From positions 32,001 through 96,000 of IMG/VR virus record IMGVR_UViG_3300020057_000027: DNA of 64,000 bases, one strand, 5' to 3'. The DNA comes from a virus. Position numbers and translations under genes: made by a program. Numbering within the stretch: position 1 is the first letter of the stretch; each line of letters starts with the position of its first letter. The notes beneath the pieces are model-generated. The model saw only the letters and a list, made by a program, of their open reading frames with translations, searched no databases and was not told where the DNA came from. Shown here in pieces: positions 43,518 to 43,652 of this stretch.

Positions 43518-43589
43518 ATGATTAAGTTTCTTTCAATCACGTCCTCATCCACCTGTACATCTACAGGGTCAACAGGCTGTTGCCTGTAA
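43518..43589 (+). CDS. Ser/Thr/Cys/Gly-rich leader peptide MIKFLSITSSSTCTSTGSTGCCL
   Basis: Follows CTAAATA; 15 consecutive S/T/C/G codons matching the downstream tRNAs. Confidence 0.72.
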   Translation: MIKFLSITSSSTCTSTGSTGCCL

Positions 43590-43652
43590 TTCAATTCGCC
43601 CTAACGGGCACATCATCACAAATAAGGGTAGAAGTTTTTCAAATCGCAAAAT

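Follow-up and report, generated by a model that had tools for sequence, protein, structure and literature searches.

Leader-peptide sensing is textbook biology for amino-acid operons. T-box riboswitches bind an uncharged tRNA directly, by means of a specifier codon and the T-box sequence, and switch a terminator. Other leader frames act through Rho-dependent termination, as seen for tnaC-tnaA in Escherichia coli and for mgtL-mgtA and mgtP-mgtCBR in Salmonella. The ribosome-mediated attenuators of Proteobacteria (trpL, hisL, thrL, leuL, pheL and ilvL) belong to amino-acid biosynthesis operons and have been studied by modeling (PMC1183508). In our literature searches, no paper was found on leader-peptide control of tRNA genes or on such control in phages.

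Here, we describe leader 2, a spacer between two tRNA genes in a T4-like phage, and compare it with these systems. Like the classical attenuators, it has a short frame at the head of a predicted transcript, with codons that would gauge the product of the genes that follow, RNA hairpins that overlap the end of the frame and a regulatory run that keeps its composition, not its order, between relatives. As in thrL and ilvL, several amino acids are covered at once. In contrast to the classical attenuators, leader 2 would control tRNAs and not enzymes. It has neither a terminator hairpin with a U-run nor a 2:3 antiterminator, it is predicted to be leaderless behind a putative phage late promoter, and it matches no leader family in Rfam. 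Leader 2 is not filed here as a member of the classical class because two of the defining features, the terminator and the exclusive antiterminator, fail.

By analogy, the Rho-dependent leaders tnaC and mgtL appear to be the nearest working analogues. They share with leader 2 the lack of an intrinsic terminator and a short frame with diagnostic codons. Further points of likeness are a C-rich, G-poor leader and a stop codon beside a G-free tract, and the composition of leader 2 is compatible with Rho loading. However, there is no sequence similarity between them and leader 2, and the target here would be a tRNA cluster. The T-box riboswitches resemble what is proposed for leader 2 in sensing the supply of a particular tRNA and in acting in cis on genes of the same amino-acid pathway. 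Unlike in the T-box, specifier, T-box sequence and terminator features were not found in leader 2, and a frame, predicted to be translated, is conserved instead.

The tRNA island and its relatives

The DNA analyzed here, called the window, is a stretch of 64,000 nucleotides that covers bases 32001-96000 of a virus record that is 164,106 bp long and has terminal repeats. The virus is a T4-like phage, with gp59, gp32 and a T4 baseplate protein encoded in the window and the same genes found in its relatives. An island of 11-12 tRNA genes and a tmRNA, identified with ARAGORN and Rfam, surrounds leader 2. The phage tmRNA (38748-39141) carries the tag ANSNDFADYALAA; it was also seen in L023 (2067-2455) and L027 (66-459), and the tags differ slightly in the relatives. 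Leader 2 is the 155-nt spacer at 43498-43652, with tRNA-Asp on one side and tRNA-Gly on the other. The features of the spacer and of its neighbors are listed here by their positions in the window.

43423-43497, plus strand: tRNA-Asp(GUC), the upstream neighbor, whose CCA end abuts leader 2 (ARAGORN; Rfam, 59.4 bits)
43506-43512, plus strand: CTAAATA, a motif resembling the T4 late promoter, exactly 5 nt ahead of the ATG in four of four homologues
43518-43589, plus strand: leader 2 frame, 23 codons and TAA, predicted to be leaderless; kept in L026, L027 and L031
43533-43553, plus strand: Ser/Thr run, codons 6-12, with much C and little G; the relatives share its composition but differ in its order
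43552-43567, plus strand: hairpin 1 (segments 1:2), CCUGUA, loop CAUC, UACAGG; from folding and conservation
43572-43587, plus strand: hairpin 2 (segments 3:4), ACAGGC, loop UGUU, GCCUGU; from folding and conservation
43598-43609, plus strand: hairpin 3, GCCC, UAAC, GGGC; in some lineages only
43610-43625, plus strand: G-free A/C/U tract (ACAUCAUCAC...) before the box; read from the sequences
43628-43639, plus strand: box GTAGAAG with TTTTT, conserved, 14-18 nt ahead of the first tRNA
43653-44053, plus strand: the tRNAs behind leader 2, Gly(UCC), Gly(GCC), Thr(UGU), Cys(GCA) and Ser(UGA) (ARAGORN, Rfam)

The first tRNA gene behind leader 2, Gly(UCC) at 43653-43727, is atypical and has the T-loop ATCGTTA. 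It was missing from the Rfam run with the default filter and scored 40.6 bits in a finer run. The gene for tRNA-Cys(GCA), at 43891-43963, was detected by Rfam only. In the relatives L026, L027 and L031, Gly(UCC) is more ordinary and the second Gly gene, Gly(GCC), is lacking; the set of tRNAs after leader 2 is otherwise that of the window.

The relatives were reached via homologues of two neighboring proteins, which led to short Logan and ENA contigs carrying the same island. The Asp-to-Gly spacer with leader 2 was compared in four sequences: the window, L026, L027 and L031. The flanking proteins are 57-68% identical between the window and the phages of the other three contigs, indicating that the DNA is well diverged, and the alignment of the four spacers has a mean column identity of 76%. 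Across this comparison the promoter motif, the frame, the hairpins, the box and the tRNA set were found to be conserved. Four strain variants (L014-L017) are 100% identical to the window over 361 nt and, therefore, are uninformative on conservation. Leader 2 and the Gly/Thr/Cys/Ser cluster are both missing from L032, L033 and L035.

Several other features of the contigs were recorded. In L032 (451-520) and L033, tRNA-Asp, leader 2 and the Gly/Thr/Cys/Ser genes are all deleted, and only the last ~20 nt of tRNA-Ser (…TTCGTCTACCTTCCGCCA) are left after a 59-codon gene. An extra insert of ~210 nt lies between tRNA-Asp and the leader promoter in L031 (1110-1320) and contains a hammerhead-like core (CTGATGAGTCC...GGACGAAAC). 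A similar core was seen in L035 (~1020-1050), upstream of its homologue of the 59-codon gene. The hammerhead candidate of the window itself (42747-42791) scored 24 bits, which is under the Rfam threshold.

Relatives of leader 2 were also sought in larger collections. No useful relative was found among GenBank phages, and the IMG/VR neighbors for ligase and PhoH were too distant and had no tRNA island in common with the window. Two pattern scans of IMG/VR were without a match and one gave three unrelated coding regions; another gave 118 matches, none of them adjoining a tRNA, and this count is about the estimated chance number. The scan of JGI metagenomes returned one unrelated phage tRNA array only, and that of GTDB genomes one chance match inside a gene.

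Frame, hairpins and box of leader 2

The motif resembling a late promoter lies at about position -10 and reads CTAAATA in the window and L027 and TATAAATA in L026 and L031. Genome-wide, ATAAATA is present 33 times on the plus strand and 4 times on the minus strand, and about half of its copies are intergenic, compared to 16% of the genome. From the genome sequence, the TAAATA motif appears to behave like a T4-type late promoter in this phage. TAAATA followed after 5 or 6 nt by ATG starts frames of 105, 216, 89, 53, 199 and 103 codons in the whole genome, one of which sits in the tail and baseplate gene block. These sites were mapped to 15111, 41289, 68475 and 123711 on the plus strand and to 55131 and 52878 on the minus strand. 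A set of late genes seems to be expressed from leaderless mRNAs in this phage. Since the same arrangement heads these other frames, leader 2 would use an ordinary leaderless gene layout. There is no Shine-Dalgarno sequence ahead of its ATG. On read-through transcripts from upstream promoters, the ATG is probably untranslated because it would be internal and without a Shine-Dalgarno sequence.

The frame has 23-24 codons in all four homologues, with the same first four residues, the same end and the TAA at the same position. There is one indel among the homologues, and it is 3 nt long. In the codon alignment of the four sequences (25 codons), 6, 6 and 14 sites are variable at the first, second and third codon positions, respectively. 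Seven codon columns vary synonymously only, including a change of TCN to AGC for Ser, and the other two reading frames are closed. Judged by its substitutions, the leader 2 frame evolves like a coding sequence, and we infer that it is translated.

Not counting the ATG, 16 of the 22 codons of the frame encode Ser, Thr, Cys or Gly, where the background fraction is 0.215 (P = 4e-7). None of the 983 small frames of the genome reaches a fraction this high. The composition of the frame was compared with the downstream tRNAs, and the match holds at the amino-acid level. When we read the codons by the standard rules of wobble, the phage anticodons leave 3 of the 16 cognate codons undecoded, two UCC and one ACC. 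The Cys/Gly composition could partly follow from structure because the Cys and Gly codons are mostly in hairpin stems.

A first-pass annotation of this DNA had pointed out four segments able to pair with one another, and all four were found where it had placed them: CCTGTA (43552-43557), TACAGG (43562-43567), ACAGGC (43572-43577) and GCCTGTA (43582-43588). The GCCC/TAAC/GGGC hairpin that it had seen after the segments is present at 43598-43609. The overlap of the segments with Thr, Cys and Gly codons was also seen in the frame at 43518-43589, where the codons concerned are ACC TGT ACA TCT ACA GGG TCA ACA GGC TGT TGC CTG TAA. RNA folding of the spacer gave exactly three hairpins, 1:2, 3:4 and GCCC/GGGC, with a z-score of -2.5 versus dinucleotide shuffles. 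In the 3' half of the leader frame, the four segments make up a pair of independent hairpins, 1:2 and 3:4.

The apical pair of hairpin 1 is A-U in the window and C-G in L026, L027 and L031. A seventh pair is added in L026 (A-U) and in L031 (G-C), and the third pair, U-A, is U-G in both of these relatives. The compensatory changes alter the peptide, from Thr-Ser to His-Thr or Arg-Thr. The stems of hairpin 2 are invariant in four of four sequences, and its loop differs in L026; with four independent sequences, this invariance is silent on whether structure or coding is the constraint. The last paired base of hairpin 2 is also the first of the stop codon (43587-43589). At the position of hairpin 3, L031 has GUGCC/GGCAC, and the hairpin is absent from L026 and L027. 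In each of the four homologues, 99.6-100% of codon-order shuffles fold less stably than the real sequence from codon 6 to the stop. Together with the compensatory changes that alter the peptide, this result suggests that the RNA structure is under selection in addition to the frame.

In both leader families, the box comes after a tract of 16-24 nt with no or almost no G. The conserved box sequence in the leader 2 homologues is GTAGAAGTTTTT. The same GTAGAAG box is found before tRNA-Pro in leader 1, the sister leader described below, and a degenerate form, GATAGAAG, is found before tRNA-Asp. C makes up 23-27% of leader 2 and G 15-16%; nucleotides 1-34 hold 8-10 C and 2-3 G. A scan of 43498-43652 for intrinsic terminators found none. 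In no homologue is the sequence behind hairpin 2 or hairpin 3 rich in U, and the sole U5 in leader 2 (43635-43639) is without a local hairpin ahead of it. For the same 43498-43652 interval there was no Rfam match even at E <= 5, T-box and leader families included.

Three further candidate structures were considered and set aside. A degenerate tRNA in the spacer was rejected, as there was no tRNA-like match. All four minimum-energy folds, and RNAalifold too, showed a long-range helix in which the 5' end of the frame (AAGUUUCUUUC) pairs with the box (GGGUAGAAGUUU). It was dropped because its duplex energy did not beat the control, in which shuffled 5' segments did as well or better in a fraction of 0.13-0.80. 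Leader 1 is without a counterpart of this helix. A terminator made of the hairpin-1 loop and segment 2 (ACAUCUAC) with the box, read by eye, was found in the window only and not in the relatives.

Short frames ahead of the other tRNA units

A sister leader, leader 1 (41990-42122), precedes the genes for tRNA-Pro/Tyr/Leu/Leu. Its promoter has the consensus TTGACA-17-TATAAT, with the ATG 6 nt after the -10 element, and leader and promoter together were located as follows.

41955-42122 of the window (1076-1247 in L026, 1422-1584 in L027, ~280-437 in L036): leader 1 with its sigma-70 promoter, conserved

The peptide core of leader 1, which is LLPLPLLYP-like, is kept in L026, L027 and L036. A UAUCCC/GGGAUA hairpin ends on the stop codon in three of the four genomes. 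In the window, the stop at the hairpin is lost and the frame reads on for 10 codons. The sequence of the second hairpin of leader 1 covaries between genomes. The two leaders had been credited with an identical distance of 18 nt between box and tRNA. This is not conserved, since for leader 1 the distance is 18 nt in the window only and 7-12 nt in the relatives. In the stretch examined, the strain variant L016 (~130-150) departs from the window at two bases of the second hairpin of leader 1; one change is in the loop, and the other breaks a stem pair. Leader 2 is identical in all the strain variants.

Two other short frames were found in the island. A Glu mini-frame at 43065-43106 has 13 codons, 3 of them for Glu, and ends 7 nt before tRNA-Glu (43114). 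It is kept in L025, L026, L027, L031 and L032 with 13-15 codons, 3-4 Glu and many nucleotide changes, and across these six genomes, window included, it ends 8-17 nt ahead of tRNA-Glu. An Asp mini-frame at 43382-43465 has 4 Asp in the 12 codons after its ATG and runs into tRNA-Asp (43423). It begins 4 nt past the stop of the 59-codon gene, where AAGGGA is a possible ribosome-binding site, and the box-like GATAGAAG lies 12 nt before tRNA-Asp. Its homologues in L026, L027, L031 and L036 have 2-5 Asp, and the frame is kept in five genomes with the window.

Each of the four tRNA units (Pro/Tyr/Leu, Glu, Asp and Gly/Thr/Cys/Ser) is, thus, preceded by its own mini-frame, and the mini-frames are kept in the relatives. 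The enrichment of the four mini-frames in their own amino acids is 3.2, 4.0, 5.2 and 3.4 fold, and the off-diagonal values are at most 1.6. The true pairing of mini-frames and tRNA units ranks first of the 24 possible assignments.

Predicted sensing of tRNA supply and its rivals

The reading we favor, at a confidence slightly short of even, is that leader 2 is a ribosome-occupancy sensor for tRNA supply. Here, it is the sensing, its sign and its output step that we infer. The leader would head a late transcript of the Gly-Gly-Thr-Cys-Ser tRNA cluster. From the layout TAAATA, 5 nt, ATG, the predicted transcription start is the A of the start codon, which would make the RNA leaderless. A ribosome would read the 23 codons, 16 of which specify Ser, Thr, Cys and Gly, the amino acids of the tRNAs encoded downstream, and to reach the stop at the 3' foot of hairpin 2 it would have to melt both hairpins. 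When decoding is slow, the ribosome would linger on the leader and one or both hairpins would be held open. When decoding is fast, it would terminate and depart, and the naked leader would refold. These two states would set the amount of the tRNA cluster that is made.

The sign of this response, in which slow decoding leads to more tRNA, is suggested by analogy. Since leader 2 is without a hairpin-plus-U terminator, the output would most likely be factor-dependent. Rho might load on the G-free tract and on the leader, which is rich in C and poor in G. Alternatively, the conserved GTAGAAG box could be where an RNase or a processing step acts. Counted for the sensor reading were the conservation of leader 2, its coding signature, the leaderless layout native to this phage, the signs of selection on the hairpins, the codon match and the repetition of this match in all four tRNA units. 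The absence of leader 2 from the relatives that lack the Gly/Thr/Cys/Ser cluster (L032, L033 and L035) was counted for it too.

A wider proposal, which we regard as possible rather than probable, is a phage tRNA-homeostasis system in which every tRNA unit is gated by its own codon-matched mini-frame. The read-out would be through Rho or RNase without a terminator, and the system would top up those tRNAs that are running short. Occupancy of the leaderless leader would control the access of Rho or RNase to the G-free tract and the GTAGAAG box, and the stop codon would be set at the hairpin foot. A shortage could arise, for example, after attack by a host anticodon nuclease.

Another possible explanation, which we consider unlikely, is that leader 2 is a passive structure in a pre-tRNA spacer. 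The hairpins and the box would then be signals for processing, stability or pausing, and the frame would be incidental. The element does sit between two tRNA genes, its ATG has no Shine-Dalgarno sequence ahead of it, and the hammerhead-like insert of L031 is in the same spacer. A processing signal is suggested by the GTAGAAG box, which stands again ahead of the first tRNA in another unit and, as the degenerate GATAGAAG, ahead of tRNA-Asp. However, the frame, its start and its stop are kept with a 3-nt indel, the excess of variable sites at third positions is 14 versus 6 and 6, and TAAATA-N5-ATG is the layout this phage uses for real genes. An incidental frame also leaves the Ser/Thr/Cys/Gly content and the match to the tRNAs unexplained.

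The coding-type substitutions could instead mean that the frame is a small protein gene of its own, encoding a Ser/Thr/Cys-rich peptide of 23 residues with a function unrelated to tRNA control. The conserved N- and C-terminal residues fit this idea, and so does the leaderless late-promoter layout shared with other phage genes. It is, nonetheless, quite improbable. The middle of the peptide keeps its composition and not its sequence, as leader peptides do, and hairpin 1 has been preserved even where this changed amino acids. Moreover, the frame is absent wherever the tRNA cluster is absent, and the three other mini-frames of the island match their own tRNAs too.

The first-pass annotation had interpreted the four segments as an attenuator-like switch that depends on ribosome position, with 1:2 and 3:4 exchanged for 2:4 or 1:3. 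An RNA structure that is tied to the short frame and kept in relatives was borne out. The switch itself was not, and we find it very doubtful. A 5-nt core, CCUGU or ACRGG (where R is A or G), is common to all four segments in four of four homologues, and the segments are inside the leader frame, so a ribosome would mask each of them in turn. Cross-complementarity of 1:3 and 2:4, each of at least 5 bp, arises in only 2-3% of random two-hairpin sequences. A restricted vocabulary, in which Ser/Thr/Cys/Gly codons force the common core, was rejected by simulation (2.3% versus 2.6%). The spacing of 10 nt that had been described is not conserved; from one core start to the next, the steps are 11, 9 and 11 nt in the window and in L027, against 14, 9 and 11 nt for L026 and L031.

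The switch was tested in the four sequences by placing a ribosome at each codon, or by masking whole segments, and then folding the RNA. When segment 1 was masked, which had been put forward as a check of the switch, hairpin 3:4 (-10.1 kcal/mol) stayed in all four sequences. On thermodynamic grounds, the masked folds speak against the switch. The alternative helices each need two segments to be blocked. Helix 2:4 formed only with both 1 and 3 blocked (-7.1 kcal/mol in the window and -4.3 to -5.3 in the relatives), and helix 1:3 only with both 2 and 4 blocked (-3.9 to -4.8). Both are weaker than 3:4 by 3-6 kcal/mol. Of the pairings that had been proposed, 1:2 and 3:4 are conserved in three of three relatives, whereas 2:4 and 1:3 are weaker there. 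Covariation gave a similar division, as compensatory changes fit 1:2 and none fit 2:4, which loses a pair.

Neither state of such a switch creates or removes a terminator, since there is no hairpin with a U-run after it. Segments 2 and 3 share the same sense, which makes the classical 2:3 antiterminator impossible. The sister leader at 41990-42122 has two hairpins without a common core, suggesting that mutual pairing is not a common feature of both leader modules. We take the cross-complementarity to be real, but read it as playing no part in a switch. It might stem from a common origin of the two hairpins or from one protein that recognizes the same helix twice.

The idea that the segments are two adjacent palindromic DNA operators (CCTGTA-N4-TACAGG and ACAGGC-N4-GCCTGT) for a dimeric DNA-binding protein, just downstream of the late promoter, is hardly credible, for although the palindromes are conserved and the four pentamers are 11, 9 and 11 bp apart in the window, roughly one helical turn, ACGGG opposite CCTGT in L026 and L031 is a G-U pair in RNA and a broken palindrome in DNA, and the change in the 1-2 spacing from 11 to 14 bp breaks the helical phasing.

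In the sensor reading that we favor, leader 2 looks like a ribosome-read sensor of tRNA supply that is codon-matched to four or five tRNA genes. The striking four-way complementarity is probably not the working part, and this matters for modeling or searching for such leaders. If the sensor reading is true, the leader design would exist in a form without an intrinsic terminator, and the speed of decoding would feed back on the supply of tRNAs that phages make for themselves. This would bear on why phages carry tRNAs and on their contest with host defenses that cleave tRNAs.
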